Sequence record: OR352958.1
DNA from: Escherichia phage AV128
Length of the DNA: 64,000 nt
Strand: one strand, 5' to 3'
The position numbers and the translations under genes were made by a program. Below the pieces are notes generated by a model. The model made no database searches. It saw nothing but the letters and a program-made list of their open reading frames with translations, and had not been told where the DNA came from. Position 1 is the first letter of the stretch; every line of letters starts with the position of its first letter. Shown here piece after piece: positions 23,714 to 36,829 of this stretch.

Positions 23714-23872
23714 TGTTGACGTAAATTTACGAAAAATAAAACTGAAAATCAGTTTAATTAAAGTGGCATTGCCGCCATAGTTTTTAGTTGCTACTGGCGG
23801 CGACTGAAGGCATAATTAAGTTATCCCAAACGGGGAATATAAAATAAACTAATTTATTTAAGGACTGTGAAT

Positions 23873-24712
23873 ATGGCCGAAGCAATCAAAGTATTATCTA
23901 AAGAAGAAAAACAAGCAGCCGCAGCAGAACGTCGTCGCGTGGCTGAAGAAAAACGCCTGGCTAAAAAGAAAGAAGCCGAAGAAAAACGCCAGAAGCGTGA
24001 GCAGGAAAAACAAGCCAAGCGTGAAGAAGCCGCGCTGAAGCGCAAACAGGCTGCTGATGAGAAGGCTCAGAAGCGTGCTGAAGAAGCAGCTAAGAAAGCT
24101 AAAGAGCGTGCAGAAAAGGCTGCTGCTAAGAAAGCAGAGCGTGAAGCCGCTAAAGCAGCAAAAGAAATCGAAAAGGCAAAGGCCAAAGAAGAAGCCAAGC
24201 GCCTGAAAGCTGAACAAGCTGCTGCTAAGAAAGCAGAGCGTGATCAAGCCCGTGCTGCAGCAAAGGCCGAAAAAGAGAAGGCTAAAGAAGAAGCGAAAGC
24301 GAAACGCAAGGCAGAGCGTGAAGCTGCTAAGATCGCGGCGAAAGAAGCTGCAGAACAGCAAAAAGAACAGCGTAAGAAAGAAGCTGAAGAACGTCGCAAA
24401 GCCATCGCAGAGCGCAAGGCTGCCAAAAAGGCAAACGGTCAGCGCCGTGCAAAAGCTACTCACTTCATCTACACTGGCAACGGCCTGAGCCAGCCGCAGG
24501 AGCACTCCACCCGTGGGCGCGTTCTGGCGGCGATCAAAGAAGGCGAAGTTGGCGTGGCGCAGTCTATCGATGAGCTGGGCGAGAAAGTTAAAGATCAACT
24601 GTTTGGCGCTTCCGTTCGCTCCTACCTGAGCAAGCTGGAAGAGATGGGCCACATCGAGTTTGTCGATGTTGAATCCAACGACGATGCCGAAGACGGTGAT
24701 CAAGCGGAATAA
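23873..24712 (+). CDS. Lys/Glu/Ala-rich coiled-coil protein with globular C-terminal domain
   Basis: About 200 aa of KEA low-complexity repeats; about 100-bp tandem duplication in DNA; AAGGA RBS; track start 23867 is GTG. Confidence 0.6.
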   Translation: MAEAIKVLSKEEKQAAAAERRRVAEEKRLAKKKEAEEKRQKREQEKQAKREEAALKRKQAADEKAQKRAEEAAKKAKERAEKAAAKKAEREAAKAAKEIEKAKAKEEAKRLKAEQAAAKKAERDQARAAAKAEKEKAKEEAKAKRKAEREAAKIAAKEAAEQQKEQRKKEAEERRKAIAERKAAKKANGQRRAKATHFIYTGNGLSQPQEHSTRGRVLAAIKEGEVGVAQSIDELGEKVKDQLFGASVRSYLSKLEEMGHIEFVDVESNDDAEDGDQAE

Positions 24713-24740: not shown

Positions 24741-24768
24741 GACCCACACTTGTTGTGGGTCTTTTTTC
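24741..24768 (+). terminator. Rho-independent terminator
   Basis: Stem gacccaca/gtgggtc, loop cttgtt, T6 tail. Confidence 0.65.
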
Positions 24769-24793
24769 GTCTGTACTAAATAGAAATGACTTG

Positions 24794-24846: not shown

Positions 24847-25842
24847 ATGAACATGAAACAACCTGTAATGATTATCGGCGGCGGTTTGGCAGGACTTATT
24901 ACCGCGTGTCACTTCCCGAACTCTATTGTGTACGAAGCAGGGGAACGAGCGCAACAGCACAAGGCGCTGCTACGCTTTCGCGGCGAAGAAGTAAGCCGTA
25001 TTACCGGAATCCCTTTTAAGGCCGTGACAGTTGACAAGGCTGTGTATTTTCGCGGCAACTACTACCACGACCATTGCCCAATCAACCTTGCCAATATGTA
25101 TTCCATGAAGGTCACCAATCAGTTTGGCAGCCGTTCAATCATGAAGCTTAAAACTGCAACGCGTTATATTGCGCCTGATGACTTTTATGATCAGCTTGTC
25201 GACAAACTGGGTGACCGCATATTCTTTAATACTCCGGTAGATACTCTTTGCGGCTATAGCGAGACGCCAATCATCAACACGTCGCCGCTGCCAGTCATGA
25301 TGAAGCTGGCTGGGATTGATCAAAAGCTTGATTTCTCATTCGATAAAGCAAACATTCGTGTTTACCGCTTTAAGATTAAACGTAAGTGTGATTTGTATCA
25401 GACAATTTACTTCCCTGACTACTCCGTCAGAACTTATCGCGCATCAATTACTGGTGACACGCTTATCATTGAAACAATTCCTTTGGTCAGCGTGAGTGAA
25501 GCTGCAGTTGAAGCCGCTGGCGGCATCACTCGTTACCGTGACATGAAGCTGCGCGCAGAAGTCGACGAAGTGTTGACAGCCTTTGGCCTCTCATGGAGTG
25601 ACATTGCTCTTGAAGAAGTTGAAAAGGTCGACCAGAAATATGGCAAGATTGTCGACATTCCGAAAGACTTGCGACACGCCCTACTCCTGCAGCTGACTAT
25701 GGATTTGAACGTGTTCAGTGTCGGTCGATTTGCTACCTGGCGCAACATTTTGCTTGATGACGTTGCCCATGACCTTGTTGAAGTTGAAAAACTCATCAAA
25801 GCAAATAACTATCAAAAATTTGCTTATATTGCTAATAAATAA
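24847..25842 (+). CDS. FAD/NAD(P)-binding oxidoreductase
   Basis: N-terminal Rossmann dinucleotide motif MIIGGGLAGL; 331 aa; start 24847 or 24853. Confidence 0.6.
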   Translation: MNMKQPVMIIGGGLAGLITACHFPNSIVYEAGERAQQHKALLRFRGEEVSRITGIPFKAVTVDKAVYFRGNYYHDHCPINLANMYSMKVTNQFGSRSIMKLKTATRYIAPDDFYDQLVDKLGDRIFFNTPVDTLCGYSETPIINTSPLPVMMKLAGIDQKLDFSFDKANIRVYRFKIKRKCDLYQTIYFPDYSVRTYRASITGDTLIIETIPLVSVSEAAVEAAGGITRYRDMKLRAEVDEVLTAFGLSWSDIALEEVEKVDQKYGKIVDIPKDLRHALLLQLTMDLNVFSVGRFATWRNILLDDVAHDLVEVEKLIKANNYQKFAYIANK

Positions 25843-25850
25843 TTTGCTTT

Positions 25851-25887
25851 CTGCTTCAATGGGCGTATACTTTAATCATTGAAGCAG
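25851..25887 (+). other. intergenic hairpin (11-bp perfect stem) without U-tail
   Basis: ctgcttcaatg / cattgaagcag with 15-nt loop between the FAD gene and the next gene. Confidence 0.3.
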
Positions 25888-25907
25888 AACTCATAGAGGA
25901 AACGAAA

Positions 25908-26354
25908 ATGAAACGAATCACTGGAATCGCGCTTGCCGCTACTGCTATTCTCGGCACCATGTATATGGAAGCGACTGAAGCTGCCATCCGCACTTCCGAT
26001 TCAGTCGCTGTTTACGATTGCGAAGCGATGGACGGTAAGACCGCAGCAACGACTGGTGCGAAGATTACCACTTACATCGGTGTGAATGAGCAAGAAGGTC
26101 TGAATATTCAGATTCAGGGATTCACAGGGAAAGGTGCCAACCGTACTCCGTGGATGCAACGTTTCACTTTCGTCCAGCCTCGTTCAACTGGCGGCTTTAT
26201 CAATCTGATTGGTGAAAACCGTTCTGGTGCAGAAATCTTTACATCAATGAGTTCTAATAATGAACCAAAGAAAAGTTTTCAGTTGCTTTATAACGCACAA
26301 TTCGTTTATCATTGCACCTTCTCTGGTGATCAGCAACTAGTGAATTACCGTTAA
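25908..26354 (+). CDS. secreted protein (signal peptide, two Cys)
   Basis: N-terminal MKRITGIALAATAILGTMYMEATEA signal-like segment; GAGGAA RBS. Confidence 0.55.
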   Translation: MKRITGIALAATAILGTMYMEATEAAIRTSDSVAVYDCEAMDGKTAATTGAKITTYIGVNEQEGLNIQIQGFTGKGANRTPWMQRFTFVQPRSTGGFINLIGENRSGAEIFTSMSSNNEPKKSFQLLYNAQFVYHCTFSGDQQLVNYR

Positions 26355-26367
26355 TAGGACAATTAAA

Positions 26368-27171
26368 ATGAAAGTTGAATTAATTCGATACACCCAAGAT
26401 GCACTTGACCTTTTGCTGGAAACAAAGAACACGCGCATGACTGGTAAGCCTGTCTCTGAGATGACGGAATCAGAGAAGCAAGAGCATTGGCGCTACATGC
26501 TTGATACAATCAAGTCTCCTTTTGACTTTGTGGACTATATCTTTGATATCACAGCTGTATCAAAGAACATGACCCATCAGATGGTACGCACACGCACAGG
26601 CGCATATCAAGAACGCACCAGCCGCGCTCAGGAGTCGTCTGCATTTGATGCGATTCGTCCTGCTAAATTCACTTACCCAGAGGATGATCCAAAGGGATGG
26701 ACTCGCCATGACGAGAAGGCCGCTGAACTGGCAGAGAAGTGGGATGATGCGATGGCGACTATCGATGCTTTGTATCAAGAGCTTCGCGCGGCTGGCGCAG
26801 AGATTCAAGATGCACGTGCCGTATTGCCTTCTAATATGCAAACGCATATCATGGCAAAGTTCAACTTGCGCACGCTGCAGCAGATGGCGTCAAACCGCTT
26901 GTGCACGCGCACGCAAGGAGAGTATCAAGAAGTATTCCGCGCAATGGTTGCGGAAGTCCTCAAGGTGCACCCTTGGGCGAATCCATTACTGCAGCCGCAA
27001 TGCATTGGTATGGGTAAGTGCGCATTTCCTCGTCACGGTAAAGCCCATTGCCCTTGGTATCGTGATTGGATGGATACCACGGCACAGCAAGAAGAGTTGC
27101 GCATCCAGTTTTGGAGTGCGATGCCAATCACCAACAATCCAGTTGCTAAAGATGGAGTATCAAAAGGATGA
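26368..27171 (+). CDS. thyX: ThyX-like flavin-dependent thymidylate synthase homolog (divergent)
   Basis: Segment VRTRTGAYQERTSR resembles ThyX RHR-x7-S-x-R motif with H replaced by T; ARAVLPSN...NLRTL block also ThyX-like. Confidence 0.6.
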   Translation: MKVELIRYTQDALDLLLETKNTRMTGKPVSEMTESEKQEHWRYMLDTIKSPFDFVDYIFDITAVSKNMTHQMVRTRTGAYQERTSRAQESSAFDAIRPAKFTYPEDDPKGWTRHDEKAAELAEKWDDAMATIDALYQELRAAGAEIQDARAVLPSNMQTHIMAKFNLRTLQQMASNRLCTRTQGEYQEVFRAMVAEVLKVHPWANPLLQPQCIGMGKCAFPRHGKAHCPWYRDWMDTTAQQEELRIQFWSAMPITNNPVAKDGVSKG

Positions 27172-28040
27172 GCATTAAAAACAGCGAAATCTTAAACGTA
27201 TTCGACCTTGACGGAACGCTGTTTGATGACCGTTGGCGCTTAGACCGCATCAAGGTGGCAGGTCCGTTGTCAGACTATGATGATTATCACAGCGGTATTG
27301 GTTATGATCAGTTCTATCCTCACATTGCATCAGCAGTAGAGTCGGCATCTCTTCGCGGTGAGGCGGTTGAATATTGGACTGCAAGGCCAGAAAAATACAG
27401 ACAAGTGACTTTTGAACGTCTGGACAATGTTTTTCCTTTTGATGAATTTACAATCAAGATGAGAGACTATGGCGACAAACGTCCATCAACTATTATGAAA
27501 TCTGCATGGCTATCGCACGCATTGCGGCACGGCGATTATCGAATCATCAATGTATTCGACGACCGACAAGACGTACTCGCGCGGATGCAAGATGAAGCAT
27601 TGTATTATAATTCCGTTGCTCAAAATAAAATCTCTTTTACATTTAATCTTTGCAAGGCAGGTGAAGTGGTGCAACAATTAGCAATTGATCCAAGCGCAAC
27701 AGGGCAAGAAGAGACTAAGGCTGTGGAAGTTGAACAATCTCCGGCAACTGCCGCCGATATTCTTGATGCAATGGCAGCAACCTTCCGTGAGCGCAACGCT
27801 GTCTATGGCGATAACGCTGTGATGGTAGGTCAGGTTATGCAAGTGCTTTTCCCTAATGGCGTGACGTTGAAAACGCCGGAAGACTACCACATGTGGCATC
27901 TGTTCGAACTTAAGATTGTCAAGCTTACACGCTTCGCAATCAGCGGCCTGAAGCACGAAGACTCTATACACGATGATGGTGTTTACAGCGCCATGTGTGA
28001 ACGTCTTGTTAACACCCATAATATTAATTTCAATAAATAG
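27168..28040 (+). CDS. HAD-superfamily phosphatase-like protein with extra C-terminal domain
   Basis: VFDLDGTL motif I and VFDDRQDV motif IV-like; C-terminal 120 aa unassigned. Confidence 0.55.
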   Translation: MSIKNSEILNVFDLDGTLFDDRWRLDRIKVAGPLSDYDDYHSGIGYDQFYPHIASAVESASLRGEAVEYWTARPEKYRQVTFERLDNVFPFDEFTIKMRDYGDKRPSTIMKSAWLSHALRHGDYRIINVFDDRQDVLARMQDEALYYNSVAQNKISFTFNLCKAGEVVQQLAIDPSATGQEETKAVEVEQSPATAADILDAMAATFRERNAVYGDNAVMVGQVMQVLFPNGVTLKTPEDYHMWHLFELKIVKLTRFAISGLKHEDSIHDDGVYSAMCERLVNTHNINFNK

Positions 28041-28069
28041 TTTACTTGTGCGTTTCGATGAGTTATATT
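28041..28069 (+). promoter_or_regulatory. sigma70-like promoter (TTTACT-17-TATATT) with conserved leader TCATCGAAACGAA
   Basis: Hexamers read directly; homologous to promoter at 35032-35060. Confidence 0.45.
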
Positions 28070-28105
28070 TATCTCATCGAAACGAAGTCCAAAAAGGATA
28101 AATAA

Positions 28106-28789
28106 ATGAAAAAAGTAATTGTTGTAACTGGCTGCAATTCCGGTCTTGGTAAATCCATTTTTGACACCCTTGGCGCTTACGGTCATGAAGTTGTCGGTAT
28201 TGATTTGGAGAACGGCTATGACATCCGTAACGCGAAACAGATGAAAGAGCTTCTCTCTCAATACGACGTAGAAGGCTTGATCAACTGCGCTGGCGTCAAC
28301 TCCAACAACTGGTTCGAAGATGTTAACTACGAAGAGTTCAATCGCGTTATGCACACCAACGCCTTCTCTTTCGTCAACACGACTCAGGCCGCGCTGAAAA
28401 GTCTTATTGACAACAAAGGTTTTGTGATCAACATCGTTTCCAACGCTGCGCATATTCCTATGACGTCCAGCTTGTGTTATAATGCTTCCAAGGCTGCTGC
28501 GCTCATGATTAGCAAGCAGATGGCTCACGAGCTTACGCCTAAATACGGGATCACGGTATTCTCTATTAGTCCTAACAAGCTACGTGGTACTGGCATGTCC
28601 AAACAGATTGAAGATGCTGTTTGCGCGACTCGCGGCTGGACTCCTGAGTATGCTGCTGAATACCAGAAAAAGGCGTTGATGAATGGATTGGAGACTGAGC
28701 CGCAAGTAATTGCTGACTTCATTCGACATATCTTAATTACGGGCGCATGGCGCTTTATGTCTGGCACTGATATTCCATTTGGTAAATAA
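28106..28789 (+). CDS. short-chain dehydrogenase/reductase (SDR) family oxidoreductase
   Basis: VTGCNSGLGKS cofactor-binding motif and YNASK catalytic motif. Confidence 0.7.
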   Translation: MKKVIVVTGCNSGLGKSIFDTLGAYGHEVVGIDLENGYDIRNAKQMKELLSQYDVEGLINCAGVNSNNWFEDVNYEEFNRVMHTNAFSFVNTTQAALKSLIDNKGFVINIVSNAAHIPMTSSLCYNASKAAALMISKQMAHELTPKYGITVFSISPNKLRGTGMSKQIEDAVCATRGWTPEYAAEYQKKALMNGLETEPQVIADFIRHILITGAWRFMSGTDIPFGK

Positions 28790-33089: not shown

Positions 33090-33498
33090 CCGTGAGCAGA
33101 AATACATATTCGTGCCTTTGAAGAAGCATTCAGAATCGGTATTGAAGCTTCAACGAATCGAGTCGATGACTGGTGATGGCGTGCCGGACGTAATCGGCAC
33201 CAACCGGAAAGGGCGCGGCTTTTGGCTTGAAATGAAGTTCTTTGAATCGTGGCCTGCAAGGGCCACCACTGCACCTTTCAGAAATGCATTTGAGAAAGGT
33301 CAATGCAGCTTTCTTTCTTCTTGGAATGATTGGAGATACCCATCATTCGTTTTGCTTAAGGTTGATTCTGAGAAGATGTTTTATTTAGTCCACCCTTCGA
33401 TTGAATTAAAGCGTTATAATACTGCAGACGTTCAACGTGAGATAATCGTGAAGGGAACTATTCATCACATCATCAAGTATTTAGAGGAATTGTCATGA
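33076..33498 (+). CDS. PD-(D/E)XK nuclease (VRR-NUC-like)
   Basis: GVPDVIG...GFWLEMKF resembles PD...E.K catalytic core; next to SNF2 helicase. Confidence 0.5.
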   Translation: MATNNREQKYIFVPLKKHSESVLKLQRIESMTGDGVPDVIGTNRKGRGFWLEMKFFESWPARATTAPFRNAFEKGQCSFLSSWNDWRYPSFVLLKVDSEKMFYLVHPSIELKRYNTADVQREIIVKGTIHHIIKYLEELS

Positions 33499-35018
33499 AA
33501 ACACAAGGGATGCGCCACCAATTATTGGCGCTTGATAAAGCAGGCCGCAGAAAATACTTTGCTTATTTTATGGAGCAGGGCCTTGGCAAAACCTGGACTG
33601 CTTTGGCAGAGTTTGAAAAGCACTTCACCGCTGGCGCGTTTGATGCCATGGTTGTTATCGCTCCAAACGGTGTACACTCAAACTGGATTCGTCGTGAAGC
33701 GCCAGAGCACCTTTCCATCAAGTGGATTGGGCATTACTGGCGCGGCAATGACAAGATGAAGACTAAAAAGGGCAAGGCGCTTTGGGAGAAGATGTTTGCT
33801 GATCACTACCCTGAAGGCGAAGTGCCTGCGCGCATCTTCTCATTCAACATTGACACCGTCAACACACCAGTCGGTTATCAACACATTGAGTCGGTCTTGA
33901 AGAAATACCGCTGTTTGATGATCATTGATGAATCGACGCGTATCAAAAATAACACAGCCAAACGCTCCATCAAGGTTGTAGAATTGGGACGGCTGGCAAA
34001 GGCCCGTCGAATCCTTTCTGGTACGCCGCTGCCACGCTCGCCTGCTGATATTTACATGCAATATCACTTCCTTGAGGCCGGCTTGCTTGGCACCAAATCG
34101 TTCCGTGCATTCAACTCTGAATTCACAGTGCTACTTGAAGCGCACGACCCAGAGATGCAGGCCATTCTCAAGAAAATCGGCGGCAACGGTTATGGCATTC
34201 CGCAAGTGCCGCGCAAAGACCAGTTTGGCCGACCGATGTACAAAAACCTTGACAAGCTTATCCGGCTGATGGAGCCGCACTATTTCCGCGCGACAAAAGC
34301 GGAATACCTGCCGGACCTTCCAGAGAAGGTGTACAAGTTTATCGACTTCGAGTTGTCGCCTAAGCAGCGCGATGTCTATGATGAACTCAAGAATGAGTAC
34401 AACTATCTGATGGAGTATAAAGGAGAAGAAGAAAACGTTAAGTTTGAGATGATCGCATCTCGCACTAAGATGAAGCAGGTGACATCAGGCTTTGTTAAGG
34501 TGTATGATGAGATGGTCTACATGGAAGATAACCCACGATTCACGGCCTTTAAGGATTATGTGGAAGGGGTGTTGGAAGATGACCCAGAGCGCAAATTCAT
34601 TGTGTGGGCCATCTTTAAGGAAGAGATGAACCAGATTAAGGATTGGCTTGAGTCTGAAGGCGTGGTCACTGGTGTATATAACGGTGAAACATCAAAAGAG
34701 CAGCGCGAGTTCTTGATTGATGACTTCCAGAAGAACACAGTTGAGAACGGTGGAACGCAAGTCTTAGTTTGTCACGCTGCAGCGGCAGGCATCGGAATCA
34801 CGCTTACCGCCGCCGACTTGGCAATCTATTATTCTTGCAACTATGACAACGAGCTGCGCAAGCAATCCGAAGACCGAAATCACCGCATCGGCACCAAATC
34901 AAGTGTGTTGTATGTTGATTTTATTGGTGTTGATACCATCGATGAAGAAATTCAGCGATCACTAAGCATGAAATCTATGCTTGCTGATCACATCCTCGAC
35001 GGCAAAAAGATGAATTAA
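33495..35018 (+). CDS. SNF2-family helicase/ATPase
   Basis: Motif I QGLGKT, motif II IIDESTRIKN, motif III SGTPL, motif VI QSEDRNHRIG. Confidence 0.8.
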   Translation: MKTQGMRHQLLALDKAGRRKYFAYFMEQGLGKTWTALAEFEKHFTAGAFDAMVVIAPNGVHSNWIRREAPEHLSIKWIGHYWRGNDKMKTKKGKALWEKMFADHYPEGEVPARIFSFNIDTVNTPVGYQHIESVLKKYRCLMIIDESTRIKNNTAKRSIKVVELGRLAKARRILSGTPLPRSPADIYMQYHFLEAGLLGTKSFRAFNSEFTVLLEAHDPEMQAILKKIGGNGYGIPQVPRKDQFGRPMYKNLDKLIRLMEPHYFRATKAEYLPDLPEKVYKFIDFELSPKQRDVYDELKNEYNYLMEYKGEEENVKFEMIASRTKMKQVTSGFVKVYDEMVYMEDNPRFTAFKDYVEGVLEDDPERKFIVWAIFKEEMNQIKDWLESEGVVTGVYNGETSKEQREFLIDDFQKNTVENGGTQVLVCHAAAAGIGITLTAADLAIYYSCNYDNELRKQSEDRNHRIGTKSSVLYVDFIGVDTIDEEIQRSLSMKSMLADHILDGKKMN

Positions 35019-35968: not shown

Positions 35969-36829
35969 ATGTCTAAGAAAGAAACTACCGAAGTTGCAGC
36001 GAAAAACACCCAGATGTCCGCTATGGCTGATTTTGTCGACATGACCGATTTTGGCGCTGGTTTTGAAGGTGCCGATGCCGATGCGTATGCCATTCCTTTT
36101 ATCGTCGTCCTGCAGAAGATGTCTCCTATGGTCGACGAAGATGATCCAAAACACGTTCCTGGTGCAAAAGCTGGCATGCTTTACAACACCGTAACGGGTG
36201 AGTTGTACGACGGAAAGAAAGGCGTTCAGATCATTCCTTGCGCATTCAAACGCACCTTCATCCTTTGGGGCGGTCGCGAATCCGATGATAAAGGCTTCAA
36301 AGGTGAATTTACTAAAGAGCATGTTGACGCAGAAGTCGCGGCAGGCCGCGCTGTTGAAATCAACGGTAAGGTCTTTGTGCCGGACGAAAATGGCAAGGTG
36401 CACGAGAAGAAATCACCTTACTACGCTGATACGCGCAACCACTTTGTGATCCTTTTGAACGAAGAAACAGGCGAATTTGGCAGCGCCATGCTTTCCCTGA
36501 CTTCTTCAATGATCAAGCCGTCTCGCATGCTGATGACCGCGCTTCAGCAGAAGAAAGTTCAGACTCCACAAGGTCTGAAAACGCCGCCGACCTTTATGAA
36601 CATTGTTCGCATGGGCACTGCATCTCAGTCCAAAGACGGCAACACCTGGTCAGTTCTTAAGTTTGAGCTGGAAGGTCTGGTGCAGGATAAAGGTCTGTAC
36701 GAAGTCGCTAAAGCATTCCACAACGACGTAGTTGGCGGCAACGTTAACATTGACCGCAGCAAGCAGGAAGAAGCAAGCGGTGCCGCTGGTCCTGTCAATG
36801 AAACTCCTACCGACGCAGAAGAGTTTTAA
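35969..36829 (+). CDS. possible ssDNA-binding protein (acidic C-terminal tail ending in Phe)
   Basis: C-terminus TPTDAEEF resembles SSB acidic tails; function by analogy only. Confidence 0.35.
   Translation: MSKKETTEVAAKNTQMSAMADFVDMTDFGAGFEGADADAYAIPFIVVLQKMSPMVDEDDPKHVPGAKAGMLYNTVTGELYDGKKGVQIIPCAFKRTFILWGGRESDDKGFKGEFTKEHVDAEVAAGRAVEINGKVFVPDENGKVHEKKSPYYADTRNHFVILLNEETGEFGSAMLSLTSSMIKPSRMLMTALQQKKVQTPQGLKTPPTFMNIVRMGTASQSKDGNTWSVLKFELEGLVQDKGLYEVAKAFHNDVVGGNVNIDRSKQEEASGAAGPVNETPTDAEEF

Follow-up and report, generated by a model that had tools for sequence, protein, structure and literature searches.

A charge-segregated helix and a predicted winged-helix-like domain in a conserved protein of Escherichia phage AV128 and other PB1-like phages

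Some phages coat their genomes with abundant, non-enzymatic proteins of the replication or early programme, as in the case of p6 of phi29 and TF1 of SPO1, and TF1 favours DNA that contains hydroxymethyl-uracil. In the IncP plasmids, KfrA combines an N-terminal winged helix-turn-helix (wHTH) DNA-binding domain with a long Ala-rich heptad coiled-coil tail, and a further class of long helices, the ER/K single alpha-helices (SAHs), is stabilised by E-K pairs spaced i to i+4, with charge blocks of ~6-9 residues. The gene considered here lies at positions 23873-24712, on the plus strand, of a stretch of 64,000 nucleotides from Escherichia phage AV128 (sequence record OR352958.1), the whole of which was analysed and is referred to as the window; its sequence is that of a Wifcevirus phage. 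Its product of 279 residues (31.1 kDa, pI 9.6) is that of Bas98_0054 of Escherichia phage HermannAdler_Bas98, annotated 'hypothetical protein', and is identical in sequence to vB_Eco4M-7_83, annotated 'TolA protein'; across the databases the gene is labelled 'hypothetical', 'TolA protein' (FEC19, ECML-117, vB_Eco4M-7 and other records) or 'structural protein'. The protein matches PHROG 4765 (function unknown) over residues 1-279 with E = 2.4e-84 and has no Pfam family, and this catalogued family is uncharacterised, with no member that has an assigned function. It is tentatively suggested that the protein is an abundant, non-enzymatic architectural protein associated with the phage genome, a functional analogue of the phage 'histone-like' proteins. 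Membership in the H1, KfrA, p6 or TF1 families fails on the tests that were run (Pfam, fold scores, domain order and periodicity).

The N-terminal helix and the C-terminal domain

Residues 1-190 are composed of 30% A, 24% K, 21% E, 11% R and 6% Q, and between residues 13 and 190 the share of K, E, A, R and Q is 94%, with only 7 L/I/V, in agreement with the initial annotation of this gene, which described about 200 residues of KEA-type sequence. AlphaFold2 predicts a single continuous alpha-helix of ~26 nm for residues 10-185 (23900-24427, plus strand) with a predicted local distance difference test score (pLDDT) of 80-95 and a net charge of about +24 to +25. The sign of the charge along this sequence recurs every 3.67 residues (11/3) with a power of 17.9, against a 95th percentile of 5.6 for shuffled sequences, and none of 300 shuffles reaches the observed value. 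Eight other family members were tested, PB1 ORF66 among them, and all show the same peak at 3.67-3.70 residues (power 12-23, 95th percentile ~5.5, 0 of 300 shuffles). When the sequence is placed in an 11-residue register, K and R fall at positions 0, 3, 7 and 10 and E and D at positions 2, 5, 8 and 9, and the resultants of the two groups point in directions that differ by 184 degrees, so that an unbroken basic stripe runs along one side of the helix and an unbroken acidic stripe along the other, separated by alanine. The phase of these stripes relative to the C-terminal domain is alike in 24 of 31 members (R = 0.79, n = 31), which, given that the sequences are related by descent, is a matter of consistency and not independent proof. 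The net charge of the helix is positive in 28 of 35 family members.

The coiled coil that was initially proposed for this segment is contradicted by the scarcity of hydrophobic residues: LIVMFYW occupy no more than 6% of the a and d positions in any heptad register and 4% of positions overall, and the power at period 7 is below 1. ER/K SAHs come closer, being likewise long, highly charged, predicted as monomers and nearly devoid of hydrophobic residues. However, like charges stack on one face of the phage helix at the dominant charge periodicity of 3.67 residues, and E to K (i+4) pairs number 13, against 14.3 +/- 2.7 in shuffled sequences, so that this class was also rejected. The hendecad charge-segregated helix is a distinct sequence-structure motif and merits biophysical interest as a self-assembling or polyanion-binding module.

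Residues 191-279 constitute a distinct, non-repetitive C-terminal region. The helix is joined to it by a conserved basic junction, GQRRAKATH (residues 186-196; 24428-24460, plus strand), the RR motif of which is nearly invariant in the family alignments, and this is followed by a predicted winged-helix-like domain at residues 197-264 (24461-24664, plus strand) with the order beta-H1-beta-H2-H3-beta. The AlphaFold2 model of the domain, built from an alignment of 35 sequences, has a pLDDT of 88, rising to ~95 in the core. It possesses the three-helix bundle and small beta-sheet of the winged-helix fold and a structural similarity to solved winged-helix domains; the canonical beta-hairpin wing is missing, as H3 is followed by a lone strand (261-264) and the sheet is completed by a third strand at the N-terminal end (197-200). 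A Foldseek search with the domain gave no significant match in the PDB (best E = 0.48) and returned only family members from the viral library. As modelled, the domain is of the winged-helix class and is without a close solved relative. The globular C-terminal domain of the initial annotation is accordingly present and winged-helix-like, and because of this fold the comparison with histone H1 and the guess of a DNA-condensing protein made at that time are architecturally apt. Sequence searches for a known domain gave nothing significant in Pfam, in the PDB (phmmer, hmmsearch) or in BFVD, and weak matches to NA37/YejK and to HU-like proteins (E 0.006-0.15) were treated as chance.

Within helix H3 the hydrophobic residues are turned to the core, and the exposed residues R249, S250, S253, K254, E256 and E257 are all invariant or nearly so across genera, as is the motif S206-x-P-Q-x-x-S-x-R-G ahead of H1. 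Judged by conservation, the invariant H3 face and the junction are the probable signature of a conserved binding surface, the ligand of which would be DNA or protein. The protein ends in a disordered acidic tail at residues 265-279 (24665-24709, plus strand), with ~8 D/E in 15-17 residues, and acidic tails recur across the family, usually after the domain.

Comparison with the linker histones H1 and H5 identifies a shared combination of a small winged-helix-type domain and a long Lys/Ala-rich, net-basic extension in proteins that are abundant (by prediction in the case of the phage protein). Nevertheless, the order of the two parts is reversed in the phage protein; its extension is a proline-free, Glu-rich, charge-segregated helix, whereas that of H1 is a disordered K/A/P tail; and its domain is neutral and without the canonical wing. 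There is no Pfam match to the Linker_histone domain, and Foldseek comparison with H1 domains gave E values of 3.6-9.8 and TM of 0.28-0.35. The phage protein resembles KfrA in being a mobile-element protein with a small wHTH-type domain, a very long Ala-rich helix and, presumably, an architectural or scaffolding role, but its domain is C-terminal. To our knowledge, the hendecad charge-segregated pattern is not a described feature of KfrA, and no Pfam match to KfrA_N was obtained at E <= 10 with the whole protein or at E <= 1 with the 35 family members. The likeness to phi29 p6 and SPO1 TF1 would be one of function only, with the addition that relatives of AV128 have hypermodified thymine; the folds are unrelated (small alpha/beta in p6, HU-like in TF1) and neither of the two has a long helix.

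Family distribution, predicted abundance and presence in virions

A tblastn search with the last 91 residues identified the family in 356 phage records, of which 293 are Pseudomonas phages (essentially Pbunavirus/PB1-like), the remainder being the Wifcevirus set together with phages infecting Serratia, Burkholderia (BcepF1), Xanthomonas, Pantoea, Erwinia and Aeromonas. A search of 1.84 billion representative proteins with a domain profile yielded only 37 clusters, with the domain C-terminal in all of them, and on the basis of these searches the family appears to be restricted to PB1-like phages. The N-terminal part varies from ~15 to 262 residues across the family and in nearly all members is a K/R/E/A-rich helix. 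PB1 ORF66 and its counterparts (14-1 gp67, Pa193_084 and KPP12 ORF65) are true homologues, with 53% identity across the C-terminal domain, the same three-part architecture, the same position between genes for a Dda-like helicase and a UDP-galactopyranose-mutase-like (UGM-like) protein, and a terminator downstream. They differ in the sequence, length and net charge of the N-terminal helix (+9 in PB1 against +25 here) and, in the case of PB1, in a longer acidic tail of 39 residues.

The gene is situated just downstream of the Dda-like helicase gene, either adjacent to it or with 1-3 small open reading frames (ORFs) between, in a replication module that includes PolIII-alpha. This order of helicase and gene is kept in Wifcevirus, PB1, 14-1, Pa193 and distant metagenomic contigs of 70-75 kb. 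One distant phage contig (L015) has the gene beside the helicase but is devoid of UGM-like, ThyX and SDR genes; the conserved association is thus with replication and not with base modification, and the idea that the protein is an accessory of a thymidine-hypermodification cluster is weakened.

Two variations at the N-terminus were observed within the family. Many metagenomic members (P0004, P0005, P0006, P0008, P0012, P0019 and P0026; for example 10001-10834 of contig L002) begin with a histidine-rich sequence, MSHGHHHH..GHTHG, which may be a metal-binding extension and which the Wifcevirus and PB1 proteins do not have. In the most distant members (P0038, P0040 and P0042) the winged-helix domain is kept and the charged helix is exchanged for a more hydrophobic N-terminal region with the motif LLxTYxxxTGKxVxRFxSRAxAExR, for which there is no Pfam match.

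The frequency of optimal E. coli codons (Fop) of the gene is 0.747, the highest among the 38 large ORFs in the window (median 0.52); the major head protein and the tail sheath reach 0.723 and 0.642, respectively. For the C-terminal domain alone the value is 0.772. The 25 Arg codons of the gene are all CGT or CGC. Codon usage predicts for this gene the strongest expression of any ORF in the window. The third highest Fop, 0.668, belongs to the ORF at 35969-36829, a Pam3_Gp34-like protein (PHROG 2402, unknown function) which may be another very abundant uncharacterised protein.

Mass spectrometry (MS) of CsCl-purified vB_Eco4M-7 virions detected the identical protein vB_Eco4M-7_83 with 7 peptides, 25.8% coverage and a score of 1197.6, sixth of 33 proteins, and the ECML-117 orthologue was also detected in virions by MS (PMC7048862). 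Tryptic digestion of the sequence can give no more than seven peptides of 7-35 residues, of which four lie in the C-terminal part, and given that 7 were seen, detection was close to saturating. The same CsCl preparations of Wifcevirus contained a glyoxalase-family protein, the unknown proteins _70 and _71, a 3-oxoacyl reductase and trace amounts of a DNA helicase (PMC7048862), a set that reflects either carry-over of abundant soluble proteins or an unusual set of packaged proteins. For Pbunavirus 'ghosts', from which the DNA had been stripped by LiCl and DNase, the neighbouring helicase is listed and the homologue of the present protein is not (PMC6521218). The annotation of the complete Bas98 genome includes no single-stranded-DNA-binding protein (SSB) and no other protein that would coat DNA.

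Possible roles of the protein

The suggestion of an architectural protein on the phage genome follows from the combination of a predicted expression at the level of capsid proteins, a position in the replication module, a conserved domain of winged-helix type in which the exposed helix is invariant and which adjoins a basic junction, a long helix whose basic stripe is conserved (net charge +25), an acidic tail and presence in DNA-containing particles. DNA binding, its geometry, self-association and the biological role are inferred. Under this proposal, the protein would be made in capsid-protein-like amounts from its own promoter-to-terminator unit of the replication module, and the winged-helix-like domain and the conserved RR-x-K arm would anchor it on nucleic acid, such that the 176-residue N-terminal helix could face the DNA backbone with a straight K/R stripe ~26 nm long. 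The E/D stripe and the acidic tail would prevent aggregation and might pair with the basic stripe of a neighbour, as a 'charge-zipper' type of lateral association, or with partner proteins, and part of the protein would end up in the virion with the DNA. A far-reaching extension of this proposal, very doubtful as a whole, is a new class of phage chromatin in which a winged-helix anchor holds a 26-nm 'Janus' helix with its basic face on DNA and its acidic face zipped to the next molecule, thereby forming a cooperative coat on the (hypermodified) genome that is packaged, co-injected as protection against host nucleases and remodelled by the SNF2-family translocase of the phage.

Several observations weigh against an architectural role. 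The winged-helix core is neutral (charge 0, pI ~7.1), unlike the globular domains of linker histones, and the helix of most family members is near to a polyampholyte (+4 to +12), so that the strong basicity seen here is no constant of the family. Furthermore, the AlphaFold2 model of the helix is that of a monomer, and the preparations used for MS held non-structural proteins, which makes carry-over of an abundant soluble protein possible.

PB1-like phages (Pbunavirus) rank among the phages most frequently chosen for therapy against Pseudomonas, and unusually fast replication has been reported for Wifcevirus phages; the gene is a core gene of the whole PB1-like lineage and its protein is present in purified particles. 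Should the protein coat DNA, it would bear on the organisation, replication and packaging of hypermodified DNA, on the evasion of nucleases and on the substrate of the SNF2-like translocase.

Given that the domain is neutral and that acidic tails are common in the family, it is conceivable, if unlikely, that the protein is instead an adaptor or spacer between proteins of the replisome, with the winged helix (as in RPA32C, Scc1 and ScpB) and the acidic tail (of the SSB type) binding the Dda-like helicase, primase or PolIII-alpha and the helix acting as a rigid tether without direct contact to DNA. The strict synteny with the helicase would agree with this, and an exposed H3 face that does not vary between phages whose hosts differ greatly in DNA composition suits a conserved protein partner. 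However, there are three difficulties: first, codons more optimal than those of the major head protein, together with the high MS scores, point to far more copies than an adaptor would need. Second, the length of the helix, from ~34 to ~260 residues across the family, provides no fixed ruler. Third, the conserved basic stripe would be without an obvious role.

A further scenario, which overlaps in part with the architectural proposal and is decidedly unlikely taken by itself, is that of a virion-internal or ejection protein that is packaged and injected with the genome, where it might, for instance, protect the incoming DNA from host nucleases, circularise it or pilot it, and that has no major role in replication. 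The detection of the protein in CsCl-purified virions of two Wifcevirus phages and its absence from the DNA-free Pbunavirus ghosts are what would be expected in this case, and orthologues in KPP12, PaGU11, XcP1, TropicalSun and others are labelled 'putative structural protein'. Nevertheless, the gene is located in the replication module behind a sigma-70-like promoter and not in the late structural module, the non-structural enzymes in the same MS data make contamination possible, and the portions consulted of the cryo-electron microscopy studies of E217 and Pa193 do not mention the protein. A scaffolding protein was also considered and set aside, as the gene is in the replication module and scaffolding in Pbunavirus has been assigned to another gene.

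In Pbunavirus 14-1, 11 promoters that share a CTGGG core require phage factors for activity (PMC10914365), which raises the possibility of a sequence-specific, MotA-like transcription factor that brings host RNA polymerase to phage-specific (non-sigma-70) promoters of the 14-1 type or that regulates its own gene through palindromes upstream. Two perfect palindromes are indeed present directly upstream of the gene and one record names an orthologue 'transcription initiation factor'. This role is highly improbable, given that a regulator would seldom have codons more optimal than those of capsid proteins or be plentiful in virion preparations, that the palindromes are single-copy in the window and form no regulon-like motif, that a charged helix of 176 residues is without precedent in such factors and that the published candidate for the redirection of promoters is 14-1 gp12.

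An envelope-spanning, TolA-like protein, as several GenBank records would have it and as the membrane-spanning role raised initially would require, is barely credible. What speaks for it, beyond the 'TolA protein' labels themselves, is composition only: the K/E/A-rich helix resembles domain II of TolA, which is the source of the database label. TolA, in contrast, is anchored by a transmembrane segment and ends in a TolA domain. The highest 19-residue Kyte-Doolittle mean in the phage protein is 0.61, compared with 2.45 in E. coli TolA, so that no hydrophobic segment is available as an anchor; a search for TolA domain III found no Pfam TolA family at E <= 10, and the C-terminal fold is modelled as a winged helix. 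In addition, the charge periodicity of E. coli TolA domain II is 7.2, with a power of 0.1 at 3.67, and blastp against E. coli TolA gave E = 0.18 and, with composition correction, no match. These tests of anchor, domain, periodicity and similarity refute membership in the TolA family, and the annotation 'TolA protein' should be retired.

The gene, its internal repeat and its surroundings

The coding frame was examined in five Wifcevirus relatives, each of which differs from the window at 23-32 nucleotides of the gene (137 differences in total). In the plus frame, 131 of the 137 are synonymous, nearly all at codon position 3, and each relative has 0-2 amino-acid changes against 23-30 synonymous ones; the plus frame is coding for this reason, and it is shown that the plus-strand ORF is a real gene under purifying selection across the whole protein. 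On the minus strand, an antisense ORF of 269 residues (23894-24703) is open, in which most of these differences alter the encoded residue and a stop codon interrupts the frame in one relative, as befits a compositional artefact and not a gene. The chance that the plus-strand ORF is itself the artefact, either of this long open minus-strand ORF or of low-complexity sequence, is negligible in view of the synonymous substitutions, the peptides found by MS and the homologues in 356 phage records, as had been judged at the outset.

The 1.2 kb around the gene is 99.9% identical to that of HermannAdler_Bas98 and 95-98% identical to 27 further Wifcevirus records. Within the gene there is an in-frame, diverged duplication of 89 nt x 2 with 74% identity (24110-24297, plus strand; copies start at 24110 and 24209), spaced by 99 nt, or 33 codons, which equals three hendecads. 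It contains an exact core of 26 nt, GCTGCTGCTAAGAAAGCAGAGCGTGA, at 24119-24144 and 24218-24243, and is the only long repeat in the gene. In 200 codon shuffles the score never rose above 20, compared with 26 for the core. The tandem duplication of roughly 100 bp that had been noted initially is therefore real as a repeat but modest in extent, and Tandem Repeats Finder reports no array of ~100 bp. The expectation that the repeat number would vary between isolates did not hold: all 28 of the 28 related phage records align across 1198-1202 of the 1201 query bases, with no length polymorphism, and the ORF is 840 nt long in the five relatives in which it could be read directly (a sixth, the UNVERIFIED TH32 record, has an upstream indel and was kept out of this count).

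The exact 26-mer is broken by synonymous changes in two relatives, hence nothing maintains the repeat at the DNA level, and the cores show ordinary synonymous variation with 1 and 2 variable sites. Iterons or an in-gene origin were considered and found no support: the gene contains three copies of GCAGAGCGTGA, the expected number for the window being 1.2, the cores vary normally and the 26-mer is lost in the two relatives. Homologues also carry internal DNA repeats at multiples of 33 nt, and the repeats appear better explained by duplication in 33-nt (hendecad) units, as in these homologues. Given the spacing in multiples of 33 nt, the 'duplication' would therefore be a footprint of periodic growth of the helix.

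The gene is flanked by the signals of a separate transcription unit. A candidate sigma-70-like promoter, TTGCTA-17 nt-CATAAT (23788-23816, plus strand), matches the consensus at 9 of 12 positions, and a -10-like element is also found upstream of the orthologue in PB1 and in a metagenomic relative. A ribosome-binding site, AAGGA (23860-23864, plus strand), lies 8 nt before the ATG, at a position equivalent to one annotated as such in phage Mansfield. Downstream, an intrinsic terminator, GACCCACA-CTTGT-TGTGGGTC followed by TTTTTT (24741-24771, plus strand), has a GC-rich stem of 8 bp and a run of six T. A terminator after the gene is annotated in three GenBank records (WFC, WFH and Mansfield), and the PB1 orthologue is likewise trailed by one, with a stem of 11 bp. 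With promoter-like site, ribosome-binding site and hairpin with T6 all present, the initial description of the gene as its own unit with a strong terminator is well supported.

Between the stop codon of the helicase gene and the promoter-like site are the two perfect palindromes, CGTAAATTTACG (23720-23731) and AAACTGA-AAA-TCAGTTT (23739-23755; plus strand for both). Each occurs as a single exact copy in the 64-kb window, with no variable site among 6 relatives. They may be operator or terminator elements; a dispersed regulatory motif was rejected because each is unique in the window.

Upstream of the gene, the window encodes a RepB-type primase, a VapE-like primase-helicase and the Dda-like helicase, and downstream the UGM-like protein, ThyX, a PNKP-like protein, an SDR, a proofreading exonuclease, PolIII-alpha and the SNF2-family translocase. 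The first part of the downstream group, at 24847-28789, comprises the UGM-like protein (PHROG 4828), an ORF of 148 residues without a family, ThyX (Pfam Thy1), a PNKP-HAD-like protein and the SDR. Pbunavirus relatives are reported to contain a sugar-like hypermodified thymidine in TG context (preprint 10.1101/2025.03.31.646159), and this cluster is a candidate for the same thymidine-hypermodification pathway in Wifcevirus. The ORF at 26368-27171, named 'thymidylate synthase' in the Bas98 record, is assigned by Pfam to flavin-dependent ThyX (Thy1, E = 2.9e-30), which is relevant if it acts as a dUMP hydroxymethylase in base modification.

The SNF2-family translocase is encoded at 33495-35018, directly after PolIII-alpha in the replication module (SNF2-rel_dom, E = 8.6e-22, and Helicase_C). 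Its Pbunavirus orthologue has been likened to the remodelers Ino80 and CHD1L in the Banzai paper, and a DNA-coating protein, as the 279-residue product may be, is a conceivable substrate of the translocase.

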